64,000 bases of DNA from positions 128,001 to 192,000 of the forward strand of contig CAVVHS010000008.1 in assembly GCA_963748215.1 (NCBI GenBank). Reading direction: 5' to 3'. The notes below the pieces were generated by a model that saw only the letters and a program-made list of their open reading frames with translations, made no database searches and was not told the origin of the DNA. Position numbers and translations under genes: made by a program. This document shows positions 4,583 to 60,742 of the stretch, piece after piece. Each line of letters begins with the position of its first letter. Position 1 is the first letter of the stretch. This stretch comes from an uncultured Gammaproteobacteria bacterium (GTDB lineage: Bacteria > Pseudomonadota > Gammaproteobacteria > UBA9214).

Positions 4583-4661
4583 CACTGGTGACCGGCGACG
4601 CGACCTGAGCGGCGGACAGCGAGACGATTACGAGGAAGTAGACGGGGGCAATCACTTGAGT

Positions 4662-6305
4662 ATGGTTACAACGTTACGTATCGGTATCATTTTCCTGCTG
4701 GCAAGCTTGTCAGTTTCACTGGCGCACGCCGCCGGTTTTTCAATGGGCAGTAGCAAGCCTCATGGTAAAGACGGTTACACCACCAATCGTCCCTGGGGCA
4801 ACATCGAACCCAGCAAACCCGCACCGCAATATCAGCCCCCGCAACCGTTACCCGGCAGCTACTATCCCGGCGCTGCACCCGGCACTGGCTGGTATTCGGC
4901 ACAGTTGCCTGCCAGCAGCGCTGCAGGCAATAGCGCGCCAGTTGTCGAGGTCGACGTCGACGGATCGGTGTTCTATGAACAGCAGAACATCGTCTACACG
5001 GTCCACGTCGTAAGCGACGGCAATCTCGCCTTGCTGGATGCCGAGTTACCGCGCATCGAGGGAGCGGCAATGGAACTGATCGACGGTCCCGTCGCCAGCA
5101 CGCGCTCCAGCGGATACAGTCGTACACCTCAAATCGTCAATACCTATCGCTACAAACTGATGCCGCTGCATTCCGGCAAGGTCGTCATTCCGGCAATCCG
5201 GTTCACCGGCACACACGCTGCCGGCAAACAGTCGAATAATCCGCAGGGCAACAAATTCACCATCGCCGCTGCCAGGCCGCTGACCCTGCAGGTGAGACCG
5301 GCCGATTCCGCAGTCCAGCCCTGGCTGCCACTGTACGACCTGCGACTGCAAACCGACCTGGAGCAGGAAGGACCTGCCAAGGCCGGCCAACCGGTCACCC
5401 TCACCCTGGAACTGACCGCACGCGGGGCACTGGGCACCCAGCTTCCGTCGCTGGCTCACCAGCTCGAAAGTCCCCATTACCGTGTGTATCGGGATACGAC
5501 CACCACCAGGAGCGGCATTTCGTCCAACGGTCGGTACCTGACCGGCAGCCGCAAGGAAACCTACACTCTCATCCCGCTCGAGGATGGCTGGATACGCCTT
5601 CCGGAGATCAACGTCGCGTGGTGGGACATCGACATGCAGACAGCACGGCTTGCCGGCTTGCCGCCCACGCAGTCCAGCGGCGCTGCGACCTCCGGCCTGA
5701 CTGCAACCGGTACCGGACAGACATCCCTGTTCCCGGCCTATTTCTGGATACCCATGGTGATCGCGCTGGCCCTGATCGCCGGCTTCTGGCTGGGCGCCTG
5801 GCACCGCACCCGACCACTGGTCAATCGAGCCGGCGCCTGGTTATCGGCAACCGGCCAGGGCGCTGTGCAACGCGGCCAGCGTCTCGGCAGCATGATCTCG
5901 CCGTTACGACACCTGCGCCGGCTGCGTATGGCATTCGCCCTGCTGATGCCGAAGTCGGTCAGGATCTGGATGTGCACGCATTGCCTGGCAACCGAGGACA
6001 ACCCGCAAGCCTGGTGCACGGAATTCAAGAGCCGCGTGTGCAAGCATCTCGACATATCCTCGCATGCCTCGCTCACCAGCATTACCGAGAAACTCATCGC
6101 GACCAGTCCCAGCGCCGAACCGGCCAGGCTGCGCGAACTGGCGCATTCGCTCGACGGCGCACTCTACGGTGACCGGACGCTCGATTTCCCCGCCTGGAAA
6201 CGCGAACTGAGACAGCAGCTGCGCCCGCACCTGCTACGCCGCAACCGTGCACGCACACCCCGCAAGACAAACACACTGCCGGCGCTCAATCCGACCTCGG
6301 CCTGA
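4662..6305 (+). CDS. batD: BatD family protein
   Basis: Signal peptide, repeated beta-rich modules (Y.L.P...G...IP; ETYTLIP..G.I.LP.I.V.WWD), C-terminal TM; last gene of the Bat operon. Confidence 0.8.
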   Translation: MVTTLRIGIIFLLASLSVSLAHAAGFSMGSSKPHGKDGYTTNRPWGNIEPSKPAPQYQPPQPLPGSYYPGAAPGTGWYSAQLPASSAAGNSAPVVEVDVDGSVFYEQQNIVYTVHVVSDGNLALLDAELPRIEGAAMELIDGPVASTRSSGYSRTPQIVNTYRYKLMPLHSGKVVIPAIRFTGTHAAGKQSNNPQGNKFTIAAARPLTLQVRPADSAVQPWLPLYDLRLQTDLEQEGPAKAGQPVTLTLELTARGALGTQLPSLAHQLESPHYRVYRDTTTTRSGISSNGRYLTGSRKETYTLIPLEDGWIRLPEINVAWWDIDMQTARLAGLPPTQSSGAATSGLTATGTGQTSLFPAYFWIPMVIALALIAGFWLGAWHRTRPLVNRAGAWLSATGQGAVQRGQRLGSMISPLRHLRRLRMAFALLMPKSVRIWMCTHCLATEDNPQAWCTEFKSRVCKHLDISSHASLTSITEKLIATSPSAEPARLRELAHSLDGALYGDRTLDFPAWKRELRQQLRPHLLRRNRARTPRKTNTLPALNPTSA

Positions 6306-8326: not shown

Positions 8327-9757
8327 CTAGCCCTTGATACAGACCAGCGGCTCCAGCCGCGCCACCTTGCGCGCCAGGCCGGCGGCATCGGCCGCATCCA
8401 CCACGGAGCCGACGTCCTTGTACGCGCCCGGCGCCTCCTCGGCCACGCCGCGTCCCGACGGACTGCGGATCAGGATGCCGCGCGCGGCCAGCTCGTCGAT
8501 GACCTGGCGACCGTGCCAGGTCTTGTGGGCCTGGTGACGGCTCATGGCGCGCCCGGCGCCGTGACAGGCGGAACTCCAGGACAGGGCCTCGCCGGCACTG
8601 GTGCCGGCCAGGACATAGGACGCGGTCCCCATCGAGCCGCCGATCAGCACCGGCTGACCCGTGGCGCGCAATGCATCGGGCAGATCGGCATGACCGGGAC
8701 CGAAGGCACGCGTGGCACCCTTGCGGTGCACGTGAAGCAGGCGGGGTTCGCCGGCCACGACATGTTGCTCGACCTTGCAGGTGTTGTGCGACACGTCGTA
8801 CAGCAGCGTCAGCTCTGCCTCCGGCAGCACCCGCGCGAAGACATTGCGCACCAGATGGGTGAGAATCTGCCGGTTGGCCAGCGCGCAGTTGATCCCGGCA
8901 CGCATCGCGCCGAGGTATTCCTCACCGATGGGGGAATCGATCGGCGCGCAGGCCAGTTCACGGTCCGGCAACGTGATGCCGTACTGCGCGGCAGCGATAA
9001 CCATGCGTTTCAGGAACTCGGTGCCGATCTGGTGTCCCAGGCCACGCGAGCCGCAATGGATGCTGACCACCACCTCGTTCTCGCGCAATCCCATAACCTG
9101 TGCCGCCCCGGCGTCGAACACCTGAACGACCTTCTGCACTTCTAGATAGTGATTGCCGCTGCCCAGCGTGCCCATTTCGTCACGCTGGCGCCGCTTGGCG
9201 TGGTCGGATACGCAACCCGGCCTGGCACCGGCCATGCGGCCGCGCTCCTCGGTGCGCTCCAGGTCGGCATCACACCCATAGCCCTGCTGTACCGCCCACT
9301 GTGCACCTCCCAGCAGCATGGCGTTCATACTCGCGGAATTCAGGTGGATCGTGCCGCTGCTGCCGAGACCGGCGGGAATGTCGCGATACAGACTGTCGGC
9401 CAGTGTTTTCTGCACCGCCATGACAGCGTCGGCCTGCAACCCGGTCAGCAGGCATCGTACGCCGCAGGAAATGTCGAAGCCGACGCCGCCGGCCGAGACC
9501 ACGCCGCCGTCGCCGGCATCGAAGGCGGCCACGCCGCCGATGGGAAAACCGTAACCCCAGTGCGCGTCGGGCATGGCATAGGATGCCTGCACGATGCCGG
9601 GCAGCATGGCCACGTTGCAGACCTGCTCGTAGACCTTGAGATCCATGTCGCGGATCAGGGTCTCGTCCGCGTAGATCAGCGCCGGCACGCGCATGGCGCC
9701 GTGCGGGGCGATCTGCCAGGCATATTCGGTATGACGGTTGAACAGCGATATATCCAT
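8327..9757 (-). CDS. rtcB: RtcB RNA ligase (archaeal-like, archease-associated)
   Basis: MPDAHWGYGFPIGGV, GVGFDISCG, GTLGSGNHY, HCGSRG, HRKGAT, CHGAGR, EEAPGAYK. Confidence 0.97.
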   Translation of the reverse strand: MDISLFNRHTEYAWQIAPHGAMRVPALIYADETLIRDMDLKVYEQVCNVAMLPGIVQASYAMPDAHWGYGFPIGGVAAFDAGDGGVVSAGGVGFDISCGVRCLLTGLQADAVMAVQKTLADSLYRDIPAGLGSSGTIHLNSASMNAMLLGGAQWAVQQGYGCDADLERTEERGRMAGARPGCVSDHAKRRQRDEMGTLGSGNHYLEVQKVVQVFDAGAAQVMGLRENEVVVSIHCGSRGLGHQIGTEFLKRMVIAAAQYGITLPDRELACAPIDSPIGEEYLGAMRAGINCALANRQILTHLVRNVFARVLPEAELTLLYDVSHNTCKVEQHVVAGEPRLLHVHRKGATRAFGPGHADLPDALRATGQPVLIGGSMGTASYVLAGTSAGEALSWSSACHGAGRAMSRHQAHKTWHGRQVIDELAARGILIRSPSGRGVAEEAPGAYKDVGSVVDAADAAGLARKVARLEPLVCIKG

Positions 9758-9814
9758 ATGCTCACCTGCCGGTCCGGCACCCGGATCGTGTCAGTGCAGA
9801 CTGGGTGTCTGGCT

Positions 9815-10237
9815 TCAGACATCCACCACGCATTGCGCGACCCAGCTGCCATCCGCTTCCTGCGCCACGCGCAAGGCGGTGTAGGTTGCACCCTTGACCT
9901 CGACCGCCGGGCGATGCCGTGCGCTGTCCAGTGCTTCGCCCCAGGCACGCGCCGTGAGCACCTCGCCGCTGATGTGCACGTCGTAGCGCGCGAACAGCCA
10001 GTGGCGTGTGGCCATTTCGTACAGCAGCGCGTTGAGCCAGTCCACCAGCAGCAATTCGTCATCCGGCGCCTGGCAACTGATCCTGACCATACCACCAGCG
10101 GAAATCCCGGTCGGCTCGGTAATCACGGCGGACAGGGCAACGGCCGCCTGCTCGAATGCCTGCTCCCGGGTCGCGCCGTAACCGCGTACCCCGATATCCG
10201 CACCGTGCGGGAAATGCTCCCAGCGCGCAAGCTGCAT
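9815..10237 (-). CDS. Archease
   Basis: [31 protein letters not shown]-terminus; directly upstream of rtcB. Confidence 0.93.
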
Positions 10238-10474
10238 GGTCAGCAGCAAATCCGCGGCAGTCCTGCGCGGCTGCATGCACAACGGCGAACCCCATCGGTA
10301 TCACGGCTTGCATTTCCACACATGGTAAATATATAGCACCGTTACCGGCACAGAGACATGACGACCGTCAATCCCGCCCCACTACCACCGGCAGGCATCA
10401 CGCAACCGGCCACGCGAGCCGGCAGAATCGCAGTCAGGGCACCGGACAAGCACATCCAGACCGCTGCGCCCGGG

Positions 10475-17289: not shown

Positions 17290-17399
17290 CGACGCGACCC
17301 GTGCAGCGACCGGCTCATGTCGCCCTGCCCGGCTAAAGTGGTAGTATTGCACCTGGTGGATAAAAAGAGATTCACCGCCTGTCGATGAAAGGGGTAACA

Positions 17400-17711
17400 A
17401 TGATACGTTCCATGCAAACTGCAACCATCCTGTGCTGTGCGGCTCTGCTGTCAACTGGTCCGGCACAGGCCGAAACGTTCGACCGTGGTCAGGCACTGTA
17501 CGAAAACCATTGCCAGACCTGTCACGAAGAACAGGTACACATGCGCTACTCCAGGCGCGCGACCTCGATGGAGGATTTGCGCCAGCAGGTTAGCAGCTGG
17601 AGTTACCATGCAGCCCTCGGCTGGTCTGCCGAGGAAGTTACCGACGTGGTCGATTACCTTGACCGGGAGTTCTATCACTTCGCGGAACCGGCTGACAAAG
17701 ACGCCCGCTGA
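17400..17711 (+). CDS. Small periplasmic monoheme cytochrome c
   Basis: Signal peptide, G..LY...CQTCH, W...EV.DVV.YL...FY.F. Confidence 0.85.
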   Translation: MIRSMQTATILCCAALLSTGPAQAETFDRGQALYENHCQTCHEEQVHMRYSRRATSMEDLRQQVSSWSYHAALGWSAEEVTDVVDYLDREFYHFAEPADKDAR

Positions 17712-18946: not shown

Positions 18947-19417
18947 TCAGGGCGTCGTGAACGGCAGGCCGGCTGCCTGCCAGTCCGCCAGCTGCATGTC
19001 GACGGCCACGACACGCGCCAGGCCGAGTTGCTGCAGCGCACTGGCAGCCAGCGCCGAGCGGCTGCCCCAGCCACAATACAGGTACAGTTCGGTGTCCGTA
19101 CCGGTGCGCTCCGGATAGCCGAGGTGGGACCAGATGCGAAACTCGATCACACCACGGGGAATATTGATGGCGCCGGGAATGTGGCCGGCATTGAATTCAT
19201 CGGGCTCGCGGACATCGATGACCAGGGCGTGCTGCGGGTGTTCTGCGATCCTGCCAAGGACCGCCTTGAACGCGGCCATGTCGATGCGGGTCACTCGCTG
19301 CTTCGCGCGGGCGACCAGCTCGTCGACCGCGACCGGCTGCTGCCCGGCTCCCGGGGCAGCCGGCGTGACCAGCAGGGCCAGGCACAGTGTCGCAAACGTA
19401 GCGCTACGAATTCTCAT
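18947..19417 (-). CDS. Exported single-domain rhodanese
   Basis: Signal peptide, IDVREPDEF..GHIPGA, active loop YCGWGSRS. Confidence 0.9.
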   Translation of the reverse strand: MRIRSATFATLCLALLVTPAAPGAGQQPVAVDELVARAKQRVTRIDMAAFKAVLGRIAEHPQHALVIDVREPDEFNAGHIPGAINIPRGVIEFRIWSHLGYPERTGTDTELYLYCGWGSRSALAASALQQLGLARVVAVDMQLADWQAAGLPFTTP

Positions 19418-19590: not shown

Positions 19591-20252
19591 TCAGGGCAGT
19601 TCCCGGGAGGCGCGCAGTGTGTCGCCACGCGCCATGGCATGCTCGACGAGGTGCATGGCGACATCCGCCATGGTCTTGAGCAACAGGAATACCACCAGCG
19701 CCATCACGCTGTTGCCGGCGAACTGGCCGCCCAGCACGATGATCAGGTGCATGGGAATGATGCGCAGGTAGGGAAAGAACATGATGTTGCCGATATTCGG
19801 GACCCGTCCCGCCTCGCGCGCACGGTGGTAGCGCCACGAAAACCGGTGATTGACATAAAACACCAGGATGCAGAGCACGACGCCGAGCAGCGGCTACGCC
19901 ACCGTGAATGCGCGCATCACTCGAACAGGAACACCAGGTAGCCGATGTGAAAAAGCCCGTAGTGCAGCGCAAAAAAGACCGCCGTCTGGCGCTGGGTCGC
20001 GCGCGTCGGCTGCACCGGCCTGTTGTTGATGCGGAAACCCTCGGTCGAGAAACGCTTGAGGCCGAGTATCCGGTGGACATTGAACCAGCCGATGATGACG
20101 CTCTGCCCCCAGTAGATCCACAGCAGCTCGGACAGATTCCAGTGCTGCAGCAAGGCCAGCACCAGCGTCACCAGGTTGGATAACAGCAGCCAGGTCACCG
20201 ACCTGTCGGTCACAAGCCTTCCGCTCGTGACAGGCGTGCTGCCGTATTCCAT
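19591..20252 (-). CDS. DUF6498-like membrane protein, interrupted by two single-base insertions near 19895-19922
   Basis: YW.QS.IIG.FN, FF..HYG.FH..Y and PY.RIIPMH..I motifs are spread over ORFs 19917..20252 and 19591..19878. Confidence 0.65.
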
Positions 20253-20901
20253 GTGCCGGTCTCCGGGATACCGCGTCCGCAGGATTGCTCAGGACTGTAA
20301 TCGGCGCTTGTAGCCGGAAATAAATCTACAGCGCCGAAACGTAGCAGGATCACGCCCCGGCCTGGCGGGGAAACGGTTTGACGAGGGTCAGCACGGCAGA
20401 GGGATTACCGCGAATTTCGCTGACACCCGTGTTTGCCGAAGTGGTAAAGCCGCCATGGCGCAACAGCTGTTGGAGCTTGGCTTCAAAATTGACAGATGTT
20501 TATGACCTCAAGCGTCGTTGCAGCGAGAATACCCCACCATTTATGTGATTCCATCGTCATTTCAGTTAGATACATAATTTTACAGCGATATATCAACTAC
20601 CACCCGTGGAACGGGTGGTATGATGAAATTCTGGAGGGTACGGGTTGTGAAAGCCCTGCAAGTCGTATCTGCATCCGGCGTTTTTCTTCCCGTTCCTGGT
20701 TTTGATGTAGGCCCGTGAAATTCCGCTTCACCTGCAGATACACACGGAAAATACGGACCGCCGACTTGCCTTTCAGCAATCCTGCCGCATGGGCCATACC
20801 GGACTTCGGCGGAATTATCAACCGCAACCCCGGATAACAGCTCCGCCGCAGCACCGGGACCAGGACCGTAACGTGCCAGCAACATGCAATCACCGGCTTT
20901 C

Positions 20902-20915
20902 ATGATTTACATCAA
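20902..20915. promoter_or_regulatory. FNR-type box upstream of the multiheme operon
   Basis: ATGAT-TTAC-ATCAA, 9/10 match, about 70 nt before the ATG at 20983. Confidence 0.6.
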
Positions 20916-20982
20916 GTGGCGGCGCGCGATATGTGGAATATTCCCTAGCTGCATAACAAGACTTTCACCACGACAATCGACC

Positions 20983-23958
20983 ATGATCTCTCCTGCAACT
21001 GCGGCCTGTCCAGTGTGCGTACTCCTGCTGCTGGTTGTCGTGAGCGGCACATTGGCCGCAGCACCAAAGCATGCCGGCGACATTCAAGCCCGCGAGCAAA
21101 CGGCAAGCGTCCGGGAGCACATGCCGGAGCACCCGCTCCATACCAATCACGCGTTTTTCTTCCACGAGCCGTTCGCGGACGGCCCGAGCGTCACCCGCGC
21201 CTGCCTGGAATGCCACCCCGACTCGGCCCGCGAGGTCATGCAGACCGCGCACTGGAACTGGCAGGGCGAGGAAGTCATGGTGCCCGGGCACGACGGCGCA
21301 GTGCGCATCGGCAAGCGCAACGTCATCAACAATTTCTGCATCGGCGTGCAGTCCAACTGGCCGGCCTGCACCATGTGCCACATCGGCTACGGCTGGGAAG
21401 ACGAGCAATTCGATTTCCAGGACGCCTCGCGGGTCGACTGCCTGGTGTGCCATGACAACAGCGGCACCTACCGGAAGAAAGTCCGCGGCGCCGGCATGCC
21501 CGACGAATCCGTCGACTTGCTGGCCGTCGCGCGCAGCGTGGGTATGCCACGCCGCCAGAACTGTGGCGGCTGTCACTTCCAGGGCGGCGGCGGCAATGCC
21601 GTCAAGCACGGTGATATGGACGAGACGCTGCTGTTCCCCAGCGAGCGCATCGATGTGCACATGGGCCGGTACGACATGCAGTGCGTCGACTGTCATCGCA
21701 CCGAGCACCACGTGATCCGGGGCCGGGCCATGGCGGTCAGCGTCGACGACAAGAACCGCGTGGCATGCACCGACTGCCATGCCGAAACACCGCATGCCGA
21801 CGTGCGCCTGAACGCCCATACCACGCGACTGGCCTGCCAGACCTGCCATATTCCGCACATGGCGGCCGACACCGGCACCAAGATGTTCTGGGACTGGTCG
21901 GAGGCCGGCCAGGACCTGGACATCACCGACGAGCACCGCTACCTGAAGATCAAGGGCCGCTTCACCTGGGCCAGGAAATTGCCGCCGGAATACCGCTGGT
22001 ACAACGAGACTTCGACCCGCTATATCACCGGCGACACCATCGATCCCGCCCGGCCGACCCGGATCACCGCCCCCTTGGGTGACCGCGATGACCCCGGTGC
22101 AAAGATATGGCCGTTCAAGGTGCACCGTGGCAAGCAGCCCTATGACACCGAAAACAACTACTTCCTGGTGCCCAATGTGCATGGCGACAAGGGCTTCTGG
22201 ACTGCGTTCGACTGGGAGACCGCCCTGCAGACGGGCGCAGAGATTACCGGCCTGCCCTACAGCGGGTCCTACAAATTCGCCCCGACCGAGATGTACTTTC
22301 CGCTGTCCCACATGGTCACCGATCCGGACGAGGCACTGCAATGCCGTGACTGTCATGGCGAACGCGGCCGCATCGACTGGGTCGCACTGGGCTACAGCAG
22401 TGATCCGCTTGGCCGTCCGCGCCTGGAACACGACCCTGTCTACCTGAACGATGCCGATGGCGTGCCGGTGACCGAATCGGGCGCGCCGCTGTCGGTAAGC
22501 GAGACCTGCGGGATGTGCCACGAACTCGAGGATGAGGACTTCGTCGCCAGCCACGGCTATCACAGCAGTGTGCAGGATGACCTGCTGCCGCCCGAACGGC
22601 GCCGGCTGATGCGCGACGGACCACGCATCCCGTCTGATGTGGACAACCAGATGAACTGCTTCCTGTGCCACCTGCAGGAGGCCGACCTTGACGGCCGGCA
22701 GGCCGCTATCGACGCCGGCGCTCCGGAATGGTCGATCAGCGCCACCTTGCTGGGCACGGGCCTGATCGCGGCATTACCAGACGGTTACCAGTGGAACAGC
22801 GAGCGGTTCGGTGAGGACGGCGAGACCGCCATCGACCTGCAACCGGTGTCCGAGGCGCAATGCGGCGCCTGCCACGGCATGGTCCATGACGGCGCCGACG
22901 CACTGCAGGTTACTCTGGGCACCGGGCAGTACTGGACCACGGAGACCACCGGCCAGGTGTTCTCGCCACAGCCGGTGCGGCTGTCCGGCATGAACCACAA
23001 GAACAAGGACACGCTCGACCTGGTGTGGGATGTGCATGCCGAACGCCTGGTCTCCTGCGGCGACTGCCATTACACGAGCAAGCGCCCCGAACGTCTGGCG
23101 GGTACGACTACGCCGGCGGGCGTGGTCCCGTCCGAGGGCGTCAAGCGCCGCTGCGAGAGCTGTCACAGCCTGGATGATACACATAGCTGGTTGCCGGAAG
23201 CGGCGCGCCACTACCATGCGGTCGCCTGCGAAGCCTGCCACGTACCGAGACTGGAAATGGGTGCAAGGGAAAGCATCGACAACACCGTCATGCAGCCGGA
23301 CGCCTCGCCATTGATCAGCTATCGCGGTATAGACGACACCAGCCTGGAAAATATCAGTGCCGCCTACATTACCGGCTACCGGCCCCTGCTGCGGGTCGGC
23401 AAGAGCGCGCTGGGCATGAACCAGGTACTGTCCTACAACCTGGTTACAGAATGGCACTGGGCAGACGGAGACAACCCCGCACCGCTTGCGGCACAACAGC
23501 TACGTGCGGCCTGGCTTGAGGATGGCGGCTACCCGGTTGCGATCATGGAAACCTTTGACGCCGATCACAACGGCCAGCTGGACCGGCAGGAGCTGCGCCT
23601 GGACGACAACAGCAAGCTGATGCTGATCAAGGAGCGGTTGCGTGCCGCGGGGGTGCGCAACCCGATGGTTCGCGGCGAGGTGCGCGCCTACCACATCCAT
23701 CACAATATCCGCCACGGCGCCCGGGTAAACCGCGACTGCACGGCCTGCCACCCGGACGACAAACAGGCCATGCCGGGATTCGAGCTGGCGCCCTATGTAC
23801 CGGCCGACGTGAAACCGGTGCTGATGCAGGACACAACCGAGATCGTCCTCGACGGCAGCTGGGACAAGACTGCGGACGGCAGCCTGCGCTTCGCGCCCGC
23901 ACGCGGCGTCGCGGAATCCTGGCAGGCGCAGGAGAACACCATACGGAGCGAACCATGA
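20983..23958 (+). CDS. 15-heme cytochrome c: octaheme tetrathionate reductase (OTR)-family domain fused to a second 7-heme OTR-like domain
   Basis: 15 CxxCH motifs; N-terminal half has OTR signature (VT.ACL.CH, HW.W, GK..V.NNFC, CT.CH.GYGW, GGGGNAVKHGD, DVHM, PFKVH.GKQPYD); signal peptide; start position uncertain. Confidence 0.88.
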   Translation: MISPATAACPVCVLLLLVVVSGTLAAAPKHAGDIQAREQTASVREHMPEHPLHTNHAFFFHEPFADGPSVTRACLECHPDSAREVMQTAHWNWQGEEVMVPGHDGAVRIGKRNVINNFCIGVQSNWPACTMCHIGYGWEDEQFDFQDASRVDCLVCHDNSGTYRKKVRGAGMPDESVDLLAVARSVGMPRRQNCGGCHFQGGGGNAVKHGDMDETLLFPSERIDVHMGRYDMQCVDCHRTEHHVIRGRAMAVSVDDKNRVACTDCHAETPHADVRLNAHTTRLACQTCHIPHMAADTGTKMFWDWSEAGQDLDITDEHRYLKIKGRFTWARKLPPEYRWYNETSTRYITGDTIDPARPTRITAPLGDRDDPGAKIWPFKVHRGKQPYDTENNYFLVPNVHGDKGFWTAFDWETALQTGAEITGLPYSGSYKFAPTEMYFPLSHMVTDPDEALQCRDCHGERGRIDWVALGYSSDPLGRPRLEHDPVYLNDADGVPVTESGAPLSVSETCGMCHELEDEDFVASHGYHSSVQDDLLPPERRRLMRDGPRIPSDVDNQMNCFLCHLQEADLDGRQAAIDAGAPEWSISATLLGTGLIAALPDGYQWNSERFGEDGETAIDLQPVSEAQCGACHGMVHDGADALQVTLGTGQYWTTETTGQVFSPQPVRLSGMNHKNKDTLDLVWDVHAERLVSCGDCHYTSKRPERLAGTTTPAGVVPSEGVKRRCESCHSLDDTHSWLPEAARHYHAVACEACHVPRLEMGARESIDNTVMQPDASPLISYRGIDDTSLENISAAYITGYRPLLRVGKSALGMNQVLSYNLVTEWHWADGDNPAPLAAQQLRAAWLEDGGYPVAIMETFDADHNGQLDRQELRLDDNSKLMLIKERLRAAGVRNPMVRGEVRAYHIHHNIRHGARVNRDCTACHPDDKQAMPGFELAPYVPADVKPVLMQDTTEIVLDGSWDKTADGSLRFAPARGVAESWQAQENTIRSEP

Positions 23959-24506
23959 ATGACATGTCCGACAAGATCAAATACTGGAATCCCTACCTGG
24001 GTGGCGCACTGCTGGGCGTCCTGCTGTTCCTGTCGTTTTTCATCACCGGCCACGGGCTGGGCGCCTCGGGCGGCGTCAATCGCATCACCGTCGCGATTCA
24101 GGACCTGGTCGTCCCCAAACATGTCGACAAGTCGCCCTATCTCGCGGAACTGGCCGGCGGTGACCGGGACCCGCTGCGCCACTGGATCGTACTGGAGGTG
24201 GCCGGGGTCATGCTCGGTGGCTTCGTGTCCGGCCTGCTGCGCGGCCGCGTGCGTCTGCAGACCTATCACGGCCCGCTGATCACACCGCGCACCCGCTGGG
24301 CCTTCGCCTTCGCGGGCGGCGTCCTGATGGGCTATGGCGCACGCCTGGCGCGCGGCTGCACCTCGGGCCAGGCGCTGAGCGGCGGGGCCGTCCTGTCGGT
24401 CGGCAGCTGGGCCTTCATGTTCGCCGTGTTTGCCGGCGGATACGCCCTGGCGTGGTTCGTCCGGCGCCTGTGGCAACCGGGAGACATAGCCGATGGCGCC
24501 CTTTGA
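23955..24506 (+). CDS. YeeE/YedE sulfur-compound transporter, first half
   Basis: YWNPYLGG, GLGASG, GG.LMG.GARLARGCTSG; ATGA overlap with upstream gene. Confidence 0.9.
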   Translation: MNDMSDKIKYWNPYLGGALLGVLLFLSFFITGHGLGASGGVNRITVAIQDLVVPKHVDKSPYLAELAGGDRDPLRHWIVLEVAGVMLGGFVSGLLRGRVRLQTYHGPLITPRTRWAFAFAGGVLMGYGARLARGCTSGQALSGGAVLSVGSWAFMFAVFAGGYALAWFVRRLWQPGDIADGAL

Positions 24507-25089
24507 TCTGACCACCACGCTCGGGGTCACCGGTTCCTACCTGGTCTACCTCGGTATCGGCTTCTGCTTCGGCTTCATCCTGGAATCCAGCGGCTTCGGG
24601 GATTCACGCAAGCTGGCCGCCCAGTTCTACTTCCGGGAACTGCGCGTGCTGAAGGTGATGTTCACCGCCATCGTGGTCGCGATGCTGCTGGTGTTCTGGG
24701 CCACGGCGCTGGGATGGCTTGATTACGACGACATCATGGTCAATGAAACCTGGTTGTGGCCCGGCATCGTCGGCGGTCTGATCATGGGTGTGGGCTTCAT
24801 CCTTGGTGGCTATTGCCCCGGCACCTCGCTGGTCAGCACGGCGACACTGAAGGTGGACGGCATGTTCTTTTTGCTTGGACTTTTTGTCGGGGTACTCGTC
24901 TTTGGTGAGACCGTGGGTTACATCAACGCGTTCTGGAACTCCAGCTACATGGGCCGCTTCATCCTGCCGGAACTGCTCGGACTCGAGATCGGGGTGGTGG
25001 TGTTGCTGGTGGTCTGTCTGGCCATCGCCATGTTCCTGGGATTTGGCTGGATCCAGCGACTGATCTACGGCCGGGGAGACCCGGAATGA
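24493..25089 (+). CDS. YeeE/YedE sulfur-compound transporter, second half
   Basis: G..FGF.LE..GF, VLKVMFTAI, GG.IMG.GF.LGGYCPGT. Confidence 0.9.
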   Translation: MAPFDLTTTLGVTGSYLVYLGIGFCFGFILESSGFGDSRKLAAQFYFRELRVLKVMFTAIVVAMLLVFWATALGWLDYDDIMVNETWLWPGIVGGLIMGVGFILGGYCPGTSLVSTATLKVDGMFFLLGLFVGVLVFGETVGYINAFWNSSYMGRFILPELLGLEIGVVVLLVVCLAIAMFLGFGWIQRLIYGRGDPE

Positions 25090-25736
25090 ACACCCTGTTC
25101 AACCCGCACAGCCTCGGCGCCGCCTTCCTGCTCGCGGCCGCAGCGGCACTGGCACTGCATGGCCAGCCCGATCTGGAACAGAAGTGGGCCTTCATGGCAC
25201 CGGAGTACGGCTCCCGGCTGACATATCGCGAGGTCTACATCGACCCGGCCGAGCTGCTGGACCTGATGAACAACGACTATATCGAGCTGGTCATTTACGA
25301 CGTGCGCGACGAGCGCGACTGGAACATGTTTCACCTGGTGGATGCCGAACGCATCGCCCTGGACGACCTGCCGGGACAACGGGAACGGTTACGCGCGCTG
25401 TCGGAGCTTGGCGTGGTCGTGATTGTCAGCAACGACGAAATTCTTGCAACGGAGGCCTGGAAACGGATAATGGCACTGGCCAAACCCAATGCTTACATCC
25501 TGGAGGGCGGCCTCAATCACTGGCTCAATATCTACGGCGTAACGAATGAAGAAGCCACGGATCATGCCACGGCCAGCCTGGCCGAACCGGACGGCACCCT
25601 GCGGCATCCGTTCAAGCTGGCGCTGGGTGCCCGGCATGCGGCGGCACGCCCGGATGAACACCGCGTGCCGCAACGGGAATATACCGCCAAAGTCAGACTG
25701 CTCAAGAAAGTCGCCAAGGCGGGCGGCTGTAACTAG
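25086..25736 (+). CDS. Rhodanese-fold protein with hydrophobic N-terminus, no active-loop Cys, C-terminal GGCN
   Basis: YDVRDE.DW..FHL..A, YILEGG...W; loop reads VIVSNDE; the only Cys is penultimate. Confidence 0.8.
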   Translation: MNTLFNPHSLGAAFLLAAAAALALHGQPDLEQKWAFMAPEYGSRLTYREVYIDPAELLDLMNNDYIELVIYDVRDERDWNMFHLVDAERIALDDLPGQRERLRALSELGVVVIVSNDEILATEAWKRIMALAKPNAYILEGGLNHWLNIYGVTNEEATDHATASLAEPDGTLRHPFKLALGARHAAARPDEHRVPQREYTAKVRLLKKVAKAGGCN

Positions 25737-25764
25737 ATCTGGAACACGGGAGACCCGAATCACC

Positions 25765-26701
25765 ATGAACATCAAACGCCTGCTTGTGATTTGCCTGCTT
25801 GCCTGGAGCGCCATCGTCGTACGGCGCCGGTGAAGAAGCTGTCGAGGAGAATCCCTGCCAGGGCATGGCGGAAGGCGAAGTCATGGGCGTGGAGGTCTGC
25901 AATGAATGTCACGCGGACCAGGTCACCGGCATGCGCATGAACTCGCACGGCCAGGCGGCGGATGCCCGGACACCCTTTGCCGGTGATGGCTGCGAAACCT
26001 GTCATGGACCGGGCACCACGCATTTCGAGGTGGAAGGCAACTGCATTATCAGCCTGCGCGGCAAGTTCGGCGAATCCGTGGAACTGCGCAACGACATTTG
26101 CCTCGACTGCCACAGCAGCGACATGATGCACTGGCCCGGCAGCACCCACGAAAGCGAGGACCTCGCCTGTACCAGCTGCCACGAAATTCACACCCCGGGC
26201 AAGGTACTGGAGCGCACGACCCAGGCCGAGGTGTGCTACCGGTGCCACAAGGACATCACGGGCACAAACCTTCCGGTCGTCCACGCACCCGATCCGGGAT
26301 GGCAAGGTGGTCTGCAGCGATTGCCACAATCCGCATGGCTCCGCGGGGCCTGCAGCACTGAAGCAAACCGGGCATCAACGAAACCTGTTACAGCTGTCAC
26401 GCCGAGAAGCGCGGCCCGTTCCTGTGGGAACATTTCCCGGTCACCGAGGACTGCACCCTGTGTCACCAGGCGCATGGCTCCAGCCACGAGTCGCTGCTGA
26501 ACCGGCAGCCTCCGCAACTCTGCCAGCAATGCCACCAGGACATCAGCACCCAGGGCCGGCAGGCATGTACGTCGTTTCCTGGACTTTGACGAACCCGCTG
26601 ATCCCGCACGCCGCCGCCTGATCGTGGGCGAGAGCTGCATGAACTGCCATTCACAAATACATGGTTCCAACCACCCGTCCGGTGTGAACCTGATGCGCTA
26701 A
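25765..26701 (+). CDS. mtrA: DmsE/MtrA/MtoA/PioA-family decaheme cytochrome c (four single-base frameshifts in this assembly)
   Basis: Reconstructed across frames: signal [94 protein letters not shown]; breaks near 25810, 26257, 26367, 26557. Confidence 0.9.
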
Positions 26702-26737
26702 GGAACTGCAACGGTATTCGTTACCAGGTAGCCGGCT

Positions 26738-28850
26738 ATGCACATGAAAATACCCGTTACGATGATCAGCCTGCTGGTCATGACCCTCAGCCCGGTTGCA
26801 ATCCGCGCACAGGAGACAGGCGCGCAGCCGGAACAAAATGATCCCCTGCTGTACAGCACGCTGGAAGCGGGTATCGGCTACAGCAGCGACGACGCCTACC
26901 GCTTTGGCCGTTACACCGGTCTGAAAGACGAAGGGCCATACCTGCTCGGTGACGTGGATGCCTACAGCTATACCGAAGACGGTCGATTCTGGAGCGCGCG
27001 CGGCACGAACCTCGGACTGGACTCCCGTTACCTGCGACTTGAGGGCGGCAGGCAGGGACAGCAGCAGTACTTCATCGAATACGACCGGCTGCCCAATTAT
27101 GAAAACAATACCGCGAGCACACCGTTCCTGGGTACCGGATCCGGCTCGCTGACGCTGCCCGCCGGCTTTGATATCACCACCAACCTGAACAGTTTCCTGC
27201 TGCCCTTCGATATCGAGACGACGCGGGAACGTATCGGTCTGGGTGCCCGGTTCGTCCCCCGGCGCAACTGGAAGCTGGACGTTGCCTTTCGGCACGAAAC
27301 CAAGGACGGGACTGACCGTATCGGCAGCGTCATAGCCAAAGGCATTGGCGGCGGTCCCGGTGACGGTCTGCTCACCAATGCCACCGCCGCCCTGTTGCCG
27401 GAACCCATCGACTACACCACCAAGCTGGTGGATGTGACGCTGCACTATGCGAAGGGCAAGGGCCAGTTCGATATCGCCTATCACCTGTCGCTGTTCGACA
27501 ATGGCATAGATGCGCTCAGCTGGGAGGACCCGTTTGCGACCCTGGTCGATGGCGTAATCGATGGCAGACAGTCCCTGGAACCGGACAACGAATTTCACCA
27601 GCTGGCCTTCACCGGGAGCTACCAGCTGCCCTATCAAAGCCAGATAACGGGTTTACTCTCCGCGGGCCGCATGACCCAGGACCAGGCCTTCCTGCCCTAC
27701 AGCGTTACTGCCGGCGCAGCGTTACCACGCAATTCGCTCGATGGCGAGGTATGGCTGACCACGGCCCAGCTCGCATGGAACAGCCGGCCCACGAGCAATC
27801 TGCGCCTCAATGCCCGCTACCGCTATGACGAGCGGGACAACAATTCACCGGTCGACATCGTATGCCTATATCGTTGCCGATGACCCTTCCGTTGCCTTTG
27901 CACCGGTTACGAATCGCCCACTCGGTTATCAACGCGACCAGTTTGACCTGACGCTCAACTACCGTATCAGCACCGGCATGAGTCTGCGCACCGGTTACCG
28001 CTACGATGCCATGTCCCGTGATTACCAGAATGCGGAACGTGCAGATACCAAGGAAAACACCCTGTTCGCGAAATGGAAGGTGGTGCCGCACGCAAAGGTG
28101 GATCTGTCCCTGAATGCCGAGGCAAGCAGCCGCGATGGCAACAACTACCAGCCACCCGTCGGAGAAAACCCGGCCCTGCGCAAATACCACCTTGCGGACC
28201 GTGGCCGTACCAAGATGGGCGCGGCAATGACTTTCATGCCCACCGAACAGCTGGACATCACGGCCAGCGCCGATTACATACGGGATGAATACCACAACTC
28301 GGACATCGGCCTGACAGAGGCGACCCAACCCACCTGGACGCTGGATATCGCCTGGCGGCCACATGAGTCTGTTACCACCAATGCCTGGTATACCCGCGAG
28401 GATATCGAGTCCAGCCAGGCGGGCGAGGATGCCGGCAGCGGCGCAATCCTCGGCATTCCCAACTGGACCGCGGATTTCGATGACACCGTGCACAGCGTGG
28501 GGCTGGGCGGCCGGGTGGACGGCATCCGCAACAAGTGGGATGTCGGCGCTGACATCGTGCATACCCGCACTGCCGGCGAGGTCGAGCTGGTCAACCAGGT
28601 GCCGGGCAGCGTCGTCACGCCCTACCCGGACCTGAAGACCTCACTGACCAGCCTGAAACTCTGGACCCGGTACCGCTACCGCAAGGACCTTTCCTGGAAA
28701 CTGGGCTACCGCTATGAACGCTACGCCGCGGACAACTGGGCACTGGACAACCTGCAGGCGGACAGTGTTGCGAATCTGCTGTTACTGGACGAGGAAACCC
28801 CGGACTACGACGTGCACGTCATCACGACGTCCGTCAGCTATCAGTTCTGA
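26738..28850 (+). CDS. mtrB: MtrB/PioB family outer-membrane porin (one frameshift near 27857)
   Basis: FGRYTGL, LGLDSR.L.LEGG.QG, EPIDY.T, PDN.FHQ, ENP.LRKY.LADR, C-terminal Phe (SYQF); follows decaheme gene. Confidence 0.92.
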
Positions 28851-28870
28851 TATAGCCACGCGCTGACGAA

Positions 28871-29951
28871 ATCGGCATAGGGGGCGGTCAGCATTGCTGA
28901 CCGTTCCCCTGCCACACCACCCGGCATGCGGGTCCGCACCGGGCGGTTCGAGAAGTTGAGGTCATGAGAGACGTGGCACTCCCAGCCGGTCGAAGTAGGC
29001 AATCGTCAGCACATGATGCACCGCGGAGAGGCTGTTATGCCACCAGCGGCGGCTCAGCGCCGCCACCGATTGCGCCACCCGGGGATTAGCTCCGAGCCGG
29101 AGCAGTTCCCGGTAGATCGTCTTGCCACGACGCCATTGCTTGAGGTGAAGGGCTCTCGGACGGCGACGTATCCACTCATCCAGCGATCGCCAGATTCGCG
29201 GGGTTTGTGCCAGCCCATAGTACCCTTTCCATCCCAACAGATAACGACGCAGTCTCTCGACCACCTCCGCCATACTGCGCCCGCCGTTGCGCCGGGTCAG
29301 TTGCCTGACCCTTTGCTTGAACGCCTCCAGCGCCTTCTCCGACACCCCGCGCCGTACCTCGCCATTCCCGGCCTGCCACAGGGCGTAGCCGAGAAACTTG
29401 CGGCTGAACACGCTGGCCACCGCACTCTTGGATTCATTGATCTTCAAGTGCAGTTTGTCGTAGCAGCGCCGCAGGAGCGCCATCACCCGCTCGCCCGCCT
29501 TCTGACTGCGTACATACACATGGCAGTCGTCGGCGTAGCGGGCAAAGCAATGCCCTCTGCGTTCCAGCTCACGATCCACCTCATCCAACAGCACGTTGGC
29601 CAGCAGCGGGTAGAGCGGGCCGCCTTGCGGCGTCCCCTCCACGCGCTCGATCACCACGCCGCCATCCATGATCCCCGCATTCAGGTAGGCCCGAACCAAC
29701 CGGATAACCCCGGCATCGTTCACGTTCTTGCTTACGCTACCTCGCCTTGATCACGAGAGCTTCGCGGCTTCATGCCCGCTCGCCCTGCTCGGCAGCGCCT
29801 TCTATCCGGTTCTTGTCCATCGGCTCGCAGCTTCGCTTCACGATTCCTCCCCACACTCGGTCACCCTTATGCAGTTGCGCTTCGCTTCGTTCGCCGTGAT
29901 CAACTTACGGTGGGACTTACACCCACAACAGTGCACCCGTGCCGGGCGCAC
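28871..29951 (-). mobile_element. Bacterial class C group II intron, internally deleted
   Basis: 5' end GTGCGCCCGG at 29951 just after a stem-loop; domain V gaaccgcccggtgcggacccgcatgccgggtggtgt and domain VI ending ...ctatgccgAT at 28871; only about 1.08 kb. Confidence 0.9.
28962..29731 (-). pseudogene. ltrA: Group II intron reverse transcriptase/maturase, N-terminally truncated
   Basis: GTPQGG, RYADD, FLGY, GWKGYY and maturase X domain present; RT0-RT3 missing; PQGGPLYPLL instead of PLSPLL. Confidence 0.88.
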
Positions 29952-29956
29952 ATGAT

Positions 29957-29982
29957 AAGGGCCGCATCATGCGGCCCTTTTT
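29957..29982. terminator. Rho-independent (probably bidirectional) terminator; intron target site
   Basis: aagggccgca-tca-tgcggccctt followed by T-run. Confidence 0.85.
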
Positions 29983-30003
29983 CATTCCCGGCTGCTCAGC
30001 CCG

Positions 30004-30372
30004 TCACTTGACGTGACACAGCTTGCATTTCTTCGGCTGTGGACCGGCCTCCCCGCCGTGCGCCACCGTGTATTCGTGACAACCGGCGCAGGTCGAATGA
30101 AACACCGTCTTGACCTTGGGCGCTTCAGCGTCTTTATCCCCATGGCATTCATGGCAGGGCTTGACGCGCTCGTCACCGGCCTCGAGGGTATGGTGACAGG
30201 TCGTGCACTCGGTGACAGTGAGATCGGCATGCATCTTGTGCAGGAAGGTCACCGTGCCCAGTTTCGTTTCGAACTGGATGACTTCCTTGTCGGATGGAAT
30301 GACCGGCTCTTCGGCGAGCACAACACCTGGCAGGCACATCACGGCAGCCAGCAGCATCAAATAACTTCGCAT
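30004..30372 (-). CDS. Tetraheme cytochrome c3-like (class III) periplasmic cytochrome
   Basis: Signal peptide; VTF.H..H, CTTCHH, CHECH, FH..CAGCH, GP...CKLCH. Confidence 0.9.
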   Translation of the reverse strand: MRSYLMLLAAVMCLPGVVLAEEPVIPSDKEVIQFETKLGTVTFLHKMHADLTVTECTTCHHTLEAGDERVKPCHECHGDKDAEAPKVKTVFHSTCAGCHEYTVAHGGEAGPQPKKCKLCHVK

Positions 30373-30767
30373 GATTTTCTCCAATAACTGAACAGACACA
30401 TCGATCAACCAAACCGCTGCCCCGGGCATCCCCGTGTCTGCACGAGGATAATTGGGACCCTCTACGTCACGCCAGACCATGATTCGGCATCGGGCCGGAA
30501 TTCCATTTTTTTCAACGCTGCTATTGTAGCAATTACCGGCCTGGATTTCCCCCGGTTCAGCAGTCCTCCGTCTGGGGGCCAGCATGACCCCGGACAGGGT
30601 TCGATGCGTGAGCTGCGGCACCAGAGACAGTTCAGATCATCCCGGCCGGTATCGACTGTCTGTCTGAAAATCAGGCACGACGGTGACACCTTGTGGTTTA
30701 ATCCGGGTCGGGACGCTACGAACACCGGCACCCCGCTGCACCCGATAACAGGATGGAGGAACCGGCC

Positions 30768-31070
30768 ATGCACGTCACGCTCGTTCATGTCACCGTGAAA
30801 CCCGGGCACATCGACGACTTCATCGAGGCGACGCGCCGCAACCACGAGGCCTCGGTGCAGGAACCGGGCAACCGGCGCTTCGACGTGCTGCAGTCATCCG
30901 ACGAACCGGCGCAGTTCGTACTCTACGAGGCCTATGCCAGTGCGAAGGACGCACAGGCGCACAAGCAGACGACGCACTATCTTGCCTGGCGGGACGCCGT
31001 GGCGGACTGGATGGCGGCACCGCGCCGGGGCGTATCCTACGCCGGCCTGTTCCCCCGGGCCCGGGCGTGA
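30768..31070 (+). CDS. ABM/LsrG-like dimeric alpha-beta barrel protein
   Basis: EPGN.RFDVLQ, FVLYEAY, HKQT.HY..WR. Confidence 0.88.
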   Translation: MHVTLVHVTVKPGHIDDFIEATRRNHEASVQEPGNRRFDVLQSSDEPAQFVLYEAYASAKDAQAHKQTTHYLAWRDAVADWMAAPRRGVSYAGLFPRARA

Positions 31071-46914: not shown

Positions 46915-46981
46915 TTAACATTATCAGGCTGTACCGTGAGGAGTCCAGCACCATTCCGGATTGACTGCGGGAGACAGGATC

Positions 46982-47626
46982 ATGCTGCGTATCCATGTAT
47001 CAATGAAATTCACCAACCAGCCGGTCAAGCGAACACCGGTGATTCTCTATCTCGATACCAACCCTGAACACCCGATCGAGGGTGCTACCGACCGCACTGG
47101 CACAGCGGAATTCGACATACCACCCGCGAGCGGCAAGGTGATGATTAACGGCGCCGCGCGCTACCATGGCCGCCTGGAGGGCGATGTGGATATCAGTCTC
47201 TGGTCACCAACCGACGCGGGCACGGTCGCCGAATCCGGGACACCCGGTGGCGATGCAGGCGGCAGCATCGCCTACCCCGGCATGCAGACCCGCACGCTCA
47301 GTATCGATGGAACCGAAGTACAGACCGACAGCGAGGGTTACCTGGTCAATCTCGATGACTGGTCGGAAGCCTTTGTGCGCGCAGAGGCCGAACACGAAGG
47401 CCTTGCGCTTACGGATGAAGTCTGGGAGGTGATCCGTTTCCTGCGGGATTTTTACGAGCAACACCGGGTCCAGGCCAATGTGCGTGAGATCATCAAGCAT
47501 TTCCGCAAGGTGTGGGGACCTGAGCTGGGCAGCAATCACCATCTGCATGCCATCTTTCCGCGAGGCGGCCCGCAGAAACAGGGCAACCGGCTGGCGGGAC
47601 TGCTGCGCACCAAGGGTGAACACTAG
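46982..47626 (+). CDS. TusE/DsrC-like protein lacking Cys, with extra N-terminal beta domain
   Basis: TDSEGYL..L.DW.E, W.VI.FLR.FY, L...FP.GGP.KQG.RLAGL; ends RTKGEH; about 100-aa N-terminal extension. Confidence 0.85.
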   Translation: MLRIHVSMKFTNQPVKRTPVILYLDTNPEHPIEGATDRTGTAEFDIPPASGKVMINGAARYHGRLEGDVDISLWSPTDAGTVAESGTPGGDAGGSIAYPGMQTRTLSIDGTEVQTDSEGYLVNLDDWSEAFVRAEAEHEGLALTDEVWEVIRFLRDFYEQHRVQANVREIIKHFRKVWGPELGSNHHLHAIFPRGGPQKQGNRLAGLLRTKGEH

Positions 47627-51112: not shown

Positions 51113-51195
51113 AGGTAGTCTCCTGCGTGCAGTCCCGGATCGACCGGGAGACCAGCGGATTCGCGTATTGTCCGTCATGTTCACGCAGCGCAGCC

Positions 51196-51209
51196 TTGAT
51201 TGTGATCAA
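51196..51209. promoter_or_regulatory. FNR box upstream of ubiT
   Basis: TTGAT-TGTG-ATCAA, perfect consensus. Confidence 0.85.
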
Positions 51210-60690: not shown

Positions 60691-60742
60691 AGCCGACGAC
60701 AGTATTGGACGTTTACCGTATTGATTTGAATTGGGGGGATTT

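Follow-up and report, generated by a model that had tools for sequence, protein, structure and literature searches.

We examined a 64,000-nt stretch of DNA from an uncultured Gammaproteobacteria bacterium (assembly GCA_963748215.1, contig CAVVHS010000008.1, positions 128,001–192,000 of the forward strand), hereafter the window, in which a compact gene cluster at 20902–28850 may couple the redox chemistry of sulfur in the cell envelope to an outer-membrane electron conduit of the MtrAB type. Positions refer to this window unless a contig is named; the genome, labeled G000, is distributed over nine contigs and is 95.3% complete. An earlier reading made from the letters alone (the sequence-only reading) had described six closely spaced genes preceded by an FNR-like box, and we found all of these, the genes on the + strand, at the positions it claimed. 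The spacing that it reported is likewise borne out, with overlaps of 4, 14 and 4 nt among the first four genes and gaps of 28 nt (25737–25764) and 36 nt (26702–26737) before the last two. The features of the locus are as follows:

20902–20915, no strand given: FNR/CRP-type box ATGATTTACATCAA, matching TTGAT-N4-ATCAA at 9 of 10 positions
20983–23958, + strand: 15-heme cytochrome, 991 aa (TIGR04315, 582 bits; 15 CXXCH motifs)
23955–24506, + strand: YeeE/YedE half A, 183 aa (PF04143, 89.7 bits; GCTSG)
24493–25089, + strand: YeeE/YedE half B, 198 aa (PF04143, 50.7 bits; YCPGT)
25086–25736, + strand: rhodanese-like protein, 216 aa, ending in KAGGCN (PF00581, 31.8 bits)
25765–26701, + strand: mtrA-type decaheme cytochrome, interrupted (ten CXXCH motifs over three frames)
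26738–28850, + strand: mtrB/pioB-type outer-membrane porin, interrupted (PF11854 on two open reading frames)
28962–29870, − strand: group II intron remnant (TIGR04416, partial; RF02001, 56.9 bits)
30004–30372, − strand: tetraheme class III (c3-type) cytochrome with a signal peptide (PF02085, E = 4.8e-13)

The first gene lies in an open reading frame (ORF) that is open from 20884, and its likely start, the ATG at 20983, yields a protein of the same length as the database entry P0132. Of its 15 CXXCH motifs, the number that had been counted from the sequence, eight fall in the N-terminal half and seven in the C-terminal half. With 582 bits against a TIGR04315 cut-off of 375, the protein is a member of the octaheme tetrathionate reductase (OTR) family (TIGR04315/PF11783), and a profile search found no other OTR in G000. 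The N-terminal half of an orthologue aligns with the OTR structure 1SP3 over its whole length (E = 4e-140), and in the alignment to 1SP3 the active-site residues are kept: Lys56 within GK(K/R)N, here GKRN, and Cys64 within NNFC. The C-terminal 500 aa have no Pfam family of their own. When an AlphaFold2 model of this half (pLDDT 86.4) was compared with solved structures, 1SP3 was the sole significant match (Foldseek E = 2e-7; all others E ≥ 0.56), and VIA-align superposed the two with a Z-score of 9.7 and a root-mean-square deviation of 5.3 Å over 286 aa. Because of these structural matches, we take the C-terminal half, with its seven hemes, to be a second domain of OTR fold that has diverged, which agrees with the earlier view of the gene as an OTR duplicate. 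As modeled, then, the protein is a two-domain enzyme, in which an octaheme OTR catalytic domain is followed by a heptaheme ‘heme wire’ domain of diverged OTR fold. Databases name such proteins plainly as ‘octaheme’ cytochromes, and tetrathionate reductase activity is a candidate function for the one encoded here.

The two genes that follow encode the halves of a YeeE/YedE protein, each with the conserved cysteine motif that had been noticed in it (GCTSG in half A, YCPGT in half B), and both exceed the PF04143 cut-off of 27 bits. Half A covers profile positions 175–309 of 310 and corresponds to the C-terminal half of a full-length YeeE (PmpA-like), and half B covers positions 10–148, corresponding to the N-terminal half (PmpB-like); in PMC11582611, PmpA and PmpB likewise each represent one half of YeeE. 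The two half-size proteins fall far short of the models for the complete transporters, reaching 26.5 bits against a cut-off of 645 for the TsuA/YeeE thiosulfate importer (NF041049); for the YedE selenium transporter (NF033796), the score is 46.2 bits against 350.

The fourth gene encodes a protein with an N-terminal hydrophobic anchor, predicted to be membrane-anchored or secreted, and the description of it as a GGC-tailed protein of rhodanese fold is upheld by its terminus and by its PF00581 score, which lies above the cut-off of 22.2 bits. In a profile match to 6MXV (E = 3.4e-6), Ser115 aligns with the catalytic cysteine of the CGSGFRS loop, so that the protein lacks the active-site cysteine of catalytic rhodaneses; nor does any cysteine occupy this column in the displayed rows of an alignment of 43 diverse members of the family. 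What is invariant in both alignments of family members is the tail (G213, G214 and C215). A terminus of the GGCG or GGCGG type ends 125 of the 150 best representatives, the remainder being mostly fragments, and a search of a library clustered at 50% identity recovers 611 representatives of the family at E ≤ 1e-3, of which 101 reach E ≤ 1e-30. Fusions tie this protein to the YeeE pair: in other lineages half B is fused to it (L017, L018 and L028–L030), fusions of this kind occur in two gammaproteobacterial loci, all seven of the long database forms tested are fusions of this kind, and two shorter database forms have a partial YeeE match. Judged from these natural fusions, the putative carrier and the channel are associated.

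The C-terminal arm of SoxY is GGCGG and carries the intermediates of the Sox pathway. Pfam and NCBIfam scans of the rhodanese-like protein gave rhodanese-type matches only, with no match to the SoxY fold or family. Yet the missing canonical cysteine, the invariant GGCG(G) tail and the frequent fusion to a YeeE half together make it look like a SoxY-like carrier, and we infer that it may serve as the built-in carrier of the split YeeE channel, loaded or unloaded at the OTR site. PMC11237559 describes the ‘swinging arm’ of SoxY and its sulfur-binding cysteine and reports that lucinid symbionts have a divergent soxY adjoining otr; according to the proposal in PMC11582611, SoxT, a YeeE-like protein, is the channel through which sulfur from the SoxY cysteine passes.

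A decaheme MtrA and an MtrB are both present, as the sequence-only reading had stated, though in this assembly neither gene is a single uninterrupted frame. The split of mtrB does not figure in that reading, nor do the c3-type gene, the replaced cysteine of the rhodanese-like protein and the cytochrome b form of the cluster. The largest mtrA fragment scores 105 bits against TIGR03508, under the cut-off of 192.2, whereas an intact orthologue reaches 281.6 bits and matches 6R2Q_A at E = 1e-71. The mtrB gene is split between ORFs 26738–27883 and 27810–28850, which match PF11854 positions 1–311 (280 bits) and 312–635 (246 bits), and an intact orthologue (from locus L003) scores 452.6 bits against TIGR03509 (cut-off 240) and matches 6R2Q_B at E = 4e-65. 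Neither MtrC nor a CymA/NapC-type protein had been seen in the window, and this absence extends to the whole genome, in which TIGR03507 and PF03264 each have zero matches. By profile search, the MtrB of the cluster is the only copy in G000.

Relative to four relatives from the same genus, mtrA carries four single-base insertions (at about 25817, 26257, 26370 and 26561) and mtrB carries one (at about 27860). With these five bases dropped, the genes encode an MtrA of 310 aa with 10 CXXCH motifs and an MtrB of 703 aa ending in YQF, with zero stop codons, and the ratios of nonsynonymous to synonymous substitution rates (dN/dS) of the repaired genes against relatives are 0.14–0.22 for mtrA and 0.23–0.26 for mtrB, compared with 0.12–0.22 for pairs of intact orthologues. 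A relative's contig supplied 56 other orthologues (≥200 aa) for comparison; five of them are frame-split in this assembly (six shifts in about 67 kb), as is dsrA (G000 C6:353160–354375). The shifts in the five orthologues lie on contig C8 around 54315, 86069, 87840, 118562, 126846 and 140066, the last corresponding to about window position 12066. The G000 assembly thus appears to be indel-noisy throughout.

Because repair restores both genes, the dN/dS is unchanged and gives no hint of relaxed selection, and other orthologues along with dsrA are also split, we read the five breaks as sequencing or assembly errors, which is quite probably what they are. The alternative is that the conduit is a recent pseudogene in this genome, with mtrA and mtrB decaying, the adjacent intron remnant marking a degrading region, and the sulfur core still working through other periplasmic cytochromes. 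The density of the breaks counts against our reading: five fall within the 3.1 kb of mtrAB, about 18 times the rate elsewhere, and none within the preceding 4.8 kb. Immediately after mtrB comes a truncated group II intron, and the neighboring DUF6498 gene just upstream of the cluster (19591–20252, − strand) is likewise split, over two ORFs that match profile positions 8–96 and 116–203. However, all five breaks are +1 insertions, none is a stop codon, every heme motif is kept, the dN/dS does not differ from that of intact orthologues, and an essential-type gene such as dsrA is broken in the same assembly. Moreover, the sequence CATC (+ strand) lies within 7 nt of four of the five insertions (25817, 26257, 26370 and 27860) as against 4.6% of background positions; although the majority of the cluster's 41 CATC sites are free of insertions, this proximity offers a hint, and only a hint, of a motif-linked systematic base-calling error. 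We therefore regard decay of the conduit as possible but doubtful.

The synteny of the sulfur genes with mtrAB extends well beyond this genome. The whole cluster recurs at 74–83% DNA identity in 6 of the 24 other genomes of the genus that were searched, and all of its genes are intact in G006 and G002. A scan with one genome per species, which draws partly on the same genomes so that the counts overlap, gave 20 loci with the rhodanese-like protein. In each of the 16 loci long enough to show it, the OTR cytochrome and both YeeE halves stand directly upstream of the rhodanese-like gene, the other four starting inside the module. Across the 17 proteobacterial loci, mtrA and/or mtrB is adjacent in 12 (downstream on the same strand in nine, convergent in two and upstream in one); three of the remaining five have no mtrAB nearby, and two end too soon. 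For two of the three without a nearby mtrAB, a module-type pair is present elsewhere in the genome: unlinked in that with locus L039, and directly upstream of the cytochrome on another contig in that with L040.

A maximum-likelihood tree was built from 22 MtrB proteins. The 10 copies associated with the module group in it as a single clade (100/100 support), regardless of how the genes are arranged, and 12 other MtrB proteins of the same bacterial family fall outside this clade. Within the order (54 genomes), the carrier gene occurs in 13 genomes, and MtrB in 12 of those 13. Other MtrAB loci are common in the family (L042–L047, L049–L052, L055 and L038), with MtrB about 33–36% identical; none is found in G000.

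In some relatives the heme domain is joined to a different partner. Relatives of the C-terminal half of the cytochrome form two groups, one of about 980 aa like the protein of the window and the other of 800–950 aa, with cytochrome b561 placed after the heme domain; homologues fused in this way are 34–40% identical to the C-terminal half. A metagenome scan found a relative encoded in 522 of 598 pattern-matched stretches and returned 80 loci, of which 51 cover the region from the heme domain to yeeA and 29 do not; we call a locus informative if mtrAB was found or if at least 2.5 kb lies downstream. Cytochrome b is present in 30 loci, and none of the 12 informative ones has mtrAB or a c3-type gene. 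It is absent from 21 loci, and all 13 informative ones have mtrAB, seven of them with a c3-type gene. In Chloroflexota, the loci comprise a separate OTR of 516 aa, a 913-aa fusion of the heme domain with cytochrome b, YeeE half A, and a 410-aa fusion of YeeE half B with the rhodanese-like protein, and neither of the two Chloroflexota genomes searched has an MtrB. The cytochrome b of this sister form matches PF01292 at E = 7.5e-27 and scores best against the PhsC model NF011582, at 146.6 bits, below the cut-off of 204. Because the heme domain of the sister form is anchored to a cytochrome b of the inner membrane, the 15-heme enzyme is probably periplasmic.

Several observations weigh against a fixed and exclusive pairing of the sulfur genes with the conduit. 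The distribution of cytochrome b and mtrAB amounts to one change on a quick YeeA tree, and therefore represents one switch kept in two clades rather than repeated independent evidence. The genome G042 (locus L026) has the module, and no MtrB was found in it, its completeness being unreported. (In L026, a DsrC-like gene directly follows the module.) The mtrAB genes are convergent in L021, L024 and L057 and hence are not always in one operon with the sulfur genes. MtrB exceeds its cut-off in 19 of the 41 carrier-negative genomes of the order, though these proteins belong to other MtrB clades. And in L025 a different multiheme–cytochrome b fusion lies directly upstream of the module, so that some relatives may still connect to the quinone pool. 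Locus L055, with its own MtrAB, has an adjoining multiheme–cytochrome b fusion that is 34% identical to that of L025. No homologue of the L025 fusion was found in G000, which has seven cytochrome b561 genes (frames of 212–378 aa), none coinciding with an ORF of three or more CXXCH motifs.

One could argue on these grounds that the adjacency has no functional meaning and that MtrAB is a general conduit that happens to adjoin a periplasmic sulfur operon with which it has nothing to do: across the order, MtrB is often found in genomes without the module, and the gene order varies and is sometimes convergent. But a single, fully supported MtrB clade goes with the module whether mtrAB is downstream, convergent, upstream or unlinked, G000 contains no other MtrB, and among informative loci mtrAB is present in 13 of 13 without cytochrome b and in 0 of 12 with it. 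This explanation was disfavored already, and we regard it as very improbable. The proposal that a sulfur module is wired to MtrAB stands in so far as it concerns linkage, a dedicated MtrB clade, the split between cytochrome b and mtrAB, and a conserved FNR-like box, whereas activity, the sulfur substrate, the direction of electron flow, co-transcription and the contact with minerals or cells remain predictions.

The convergent tetraheme c3-type cytochrome just beyond mtrB is a conserved seventh gene. Its orthologues stand directly after mtrB in L014, L016 and L025, with one also in L017, and the protein is likely to be a periplasmic shuttle. In relatives, the c3-type gene begins 67 nt (L016) or 30 nt (L014) after the mtrB match, and in the window an intron lies between the two. 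What is left of this intron is a reverse transcriptase/maturase without its first ~150 residues (TIGR04416 positions 151–353 of 353) and intron RNA domains D1–D4 (RF02001, at 29700–29870); the remnant is not part of the system.

The FNR-like box that the sequence-only reading had placed ahead of the cluster begins 81 nt 5′ of the start codon of the cytochrome gene. Boxes that match equally well precede the cytochrome in 8 of the 13 orthologous loci examined, against an expectation of 0.027 per 430 nt from the density in the window. Genes of the Crp/FNR family adjoin the MtrAB form of the cluster in five distinct loci (L002, L016/L054, L025, L067 and L071), and genes of the ArsR family adjoin the cytochrome b form in 10 loci; regulators of the ArsR family are known as sulfane-sulfur sensors of sulfur oxidizers. 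A scan for promoters and terminators over 20300–30800 returned three promoter-like sites where 2.6 are expected and five terminator-like sites where 7.2 are expected. It predicted neither kind of element on the + strand in the gaps between the rhodanese-like gene and mtrA or between mtrA and mtrB, and at these rates is uninformative either way. Elsewhere in the window, a perfect FNR-type box, TTGATTGTGATCAA (51196–51209), is the sole 10/10 match, and it lies 12 nt upstream of an SCP2-domain gene (50627–51184, − strand).

As to the host, G000 contains soxB, RuBisCO and the frame-split dsrA, and the named hosts of the module include Thiohalobacterales and Thiogranum, which are sulfur-oxidizing Gammaproteobacteria. 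The window also holds two DsrC-like genes (46961–47626 and 60731–61108, + strand), an Rrf2 regulator (47828–48262, − strand) and an NnrS gene (48511–49716, + strand). Five further large ORFs of G000, of 671–2035 aa and with 5–10 CXXCH motifs each (C6:703149–706109, C6:710900–717004, C7:41530–46974, C6:473783–477238 and C5:88537–90549), could encode extracellular or periplasmic electron carriers. Closer to the cluster, 1.5–3.5 kb upstream, are a small cytochrome c (17385–17711, + strand) and a conventional rhodanese-domain gene (18947–19417, − strand; PF00581, E = 1.4e-15). An RtcB RNA ligase with archease (8327–10282, − strand) and a BatA–D-like operon (DUF4381, two VWA proteins, TPR and BatD; 199–6305, + strand) look ordinary.

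The interpretation that we favor, with moderate confidence, is that the seven genes form a conserved envelope module that couples sulfur redox chemistry to a dedicated outer-membrane conduit in sulfur-oxidizing Gammaproteobacteria. In such a module, the periplasmic 15-heme cytochrome would perform two-electron chemistry on S–S bonds at its OTR-type site, with a lysine-ligated heme and a neighboring cysteine. The substrate or product would be held, in the manner of SoxY, on the GGC(G) cysteine of the membrane-anchored rhodanese-like protein acting as a swinging-arm carrier; and this carrier would be seated on the two-piece channel of YeeE/PmpAB type, through which sulfur would cross the inner membrane. 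Electrons would pass along the seven extra hemes, and probably the c3-type cytochrome, to the dedicated MtrA–MtrB pair in the outer membrane, whereas in the sister architecture the same heme domain is anchored to a quinone-reactive cytochrome b. Low oxygen would probably induce expression by way of the FNR-type box. Because the genome has no quinol dehydrogenase of a known type, the inner partner of the conduit is most simply the 15-heme enzyme, with the c3-type protein as a shuttle. Gene content, domain identities, conserved linkage, the MtrB clade, the alternation of cytochrome b and MtrAB, the invariant Cys tail and the carrier–channel fusions are observed; the role of the carrier, the substrate, the direction of electron flow and the localization of the parts are predicted.

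We slightly prefer an outward flow of electrons, because the host is a sulfur oxidizer and the control element is FNR-like. Under such a scheme, reduced sulfur (sulfide, polysulfide or thiosulfate) would be oxidatively loaded onto the carrier, and in the absence of oxygen and nitrate the electrons would be passed out of the cell, to minerals, shuttles or partner cells. A difficulty for this direction is that the thiosulfate/tetrathionate couple is of high potential and fits poorly with outward flow through the low-potential hemes of Mtr proteins; outward flow would therefore need a donor of lower potential, such as sulfide.

The same difficulty turns into an argument for the reverse route, in which MtrAB would take up electrons from extracellular Fe(II) or sulfide minerals, from reduced shuttles or from a partner, the OTR domain would reduce tetrathionate, polysulfide or a carrier-bound disulfide, and thiosulfate or sulfane sulfur would be imported through the YeeE pair: transfer from low-potential Mtr hemes to a high-potential S–S couple is downhill. 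The absence of MtrC is shared with the electron-uptake conduits MtoAB and PioAB. The best match of the sister cytochrome b, below cut-off as noted, is to PhsC, the quinol-oxidizing partner of thiosulfate reductase; but cytochromes b of the HydC/FdnI/PhsC type run in either direction in different enzymes. OTR itself is known as a reductase, acting in vitro on tetrathionate, nitrite and hydroxylamine (Mowat 2004 and Atkinson 2007, as cited in PMC11237559). Against inward flow, it is hard to see how a route stopping at the periplasm would conserve energy, and a sulfur oxidizer under FNR-type control is more plausibly short of an electron acceptor than of a further donor. Taken as a whole, electron uptake feeding a periplasmic reduction strikes us as rather unlikely.

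It is also conceivable that the substrate is not sulfur, the OTR-type enzyme acting on nitrite, hydroxylamine or oxyanions of selenium or tellurium, and the YeeE pair and Cys-tailed protein serving the transport of selenium or a metalloid. The in vitro activity of OTR on nitrite and hydroxylamine, as cited in PMC11237559, would suit this proposal, as would the NnrS gene in the window and weak matches to selenium-linked NCBIfam models (YedE/FdhT, 46 bits against 350; rhodanese_LYCAU, 19 against 115). These selenium-family scores are, however, an order of magnitude under their cut-offs. The Cys tail matches that of the sulfur carrier SoxY, the host has Sox and Dsr genes with two DsrC-like genes in the window itself, and the ArsR-type regulators beside the sister form in 10 loci belong to a family that includes sensors of sulfane sulfur in sulfur oxidizers. 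A substrate other than sulfur is accordingly improbable.

Returning to the coupling of sulfur chemistry to the envelope, a broader generalization may be drawn, though more tentatively: the MtrAB and cytochrome b forms may represent a new periplasmic sulfur redox system, in which an OTR-type enzyme works with a Cys-arm rhodanese carrier on a split YeeE and has two interchangeable outlets, cytochrome b in Chloroflexota and others and MtrAB with the c3-type protein in Gammaproteobacteria. We consider this possible, but far from assured. By the size of the carrier family and the number of metagenome relatives, the module is widespread, and it defines a large family of Cys-tailed rhodanese-like proteins that has so far had no name. 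It also shows that proteins annotated as ‘octaheme tetrathionate reductase’ are 15-heme enzymes of two domains. How sulfur-oxidizing Gammaproteobacteria stay active in anoxic, nitrate-free sediment is an open question, for which the module provides a concrete and testable set of genes; if our interpretation is true, the MtrAB form would let chemolithoautotrophic sulfur oxidizers in such sediment dump the electrons of sulfur on minerals, shuttles or cable bacteria. The module is, moreover, a possible means of delivering carrier-bound sulfur to a YeeE-type channel; in PMC11582611, the transfer of the carrier's sulfur into the cytoplasm is said to occur ‘by unknown means’.

In the literature searched, with subscription journals and supplements lying outside it, we found no description of this gene combination, of a 15-heme two-domain OTR, of the Cys-tailed rhodanese family, or of a choice between cytochrome b and MtrAB. 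The parts nevertheless invite comparison with several known systems. Like MtrCAB, MtoAB and PioAB, the cluster encodes a decaheme MtrA and an MtrB/PioB barrel side by side, and their orthologues match the Shewanella baltica structure 6R2Q; the conduit of the window is tied to a sulfur module, and its MtrB falls in a clade apart from the other MtrB proteins of the bacterial family. MtrCAB of Shewanella, in addition, has MtrC/OmcA and CymA/NapC, both absent from G000.

The enzyme shares with OTR of Shewanella oneidensis (1SP3) the full length of its N-terminal half, the eight CXXCH motifs, Lys56 and Cys64. Unlike that protein, it has a fused seven-heme OTR-fold domain and fixed partners, namely the YeeE halves, the carrier, and MtrAB or cytochrome b. 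The sister form resembles CbcL-type proteins, which are fusions of a multiheme domain with cytochrome b, and PhsC, in that its heme domain is joined to a cytochrome b561/PhsC-like domain; the protein of the window either lost or never had this membrane domain and is fused to an OTR domain instead.

With SoxYZ, SoxXA and SoxT, the module has in common a protein, here predicted to be periplasmic, with a Gly-Gly-Cys-Gly(-Gly) tail, an enzyme of c-type cytochrome nature and a channel of the YeeE family. Unlike in Sox, the carrier would be built on an anchored rhodanese-like domain, the heme enzyme is of the OTR type, and no SoxB-like hydrolase is encoded in the cluster. PmpAB likewise consists of two half-size YeeE proteins, each with a conserved cysteine, but these are of about 130 aa as against 183 and 198 aa here, and the partner in the module is a periplasmic Cys-tailed protein rather than a cytoplasmic TusA-like one. 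From TsuA, the halves are separated by scores far under the cut-off of its model (26.5 as against 645 bits).

A further comparison is with DmsEFAB of Shewanella, with which the module shares a dedicated MtrAB paralogue encoded beside a specific oxidoreductase, as opposed to a generic metal reductase. PMC9732548 describes dmsEFAB as acting extracellularly. Where DmsEFAB has a molybdoenzyme, the module has a multiheme cytochrome of the OTR type, probably periplasmic, to which a sulfur channel and a putative carrier are added. Every part of the module thus belongs to a known family, and its conduit is dedicated to a specific enzyme, as in DmsEFAB; its sulfur-carrier component is possibly new.

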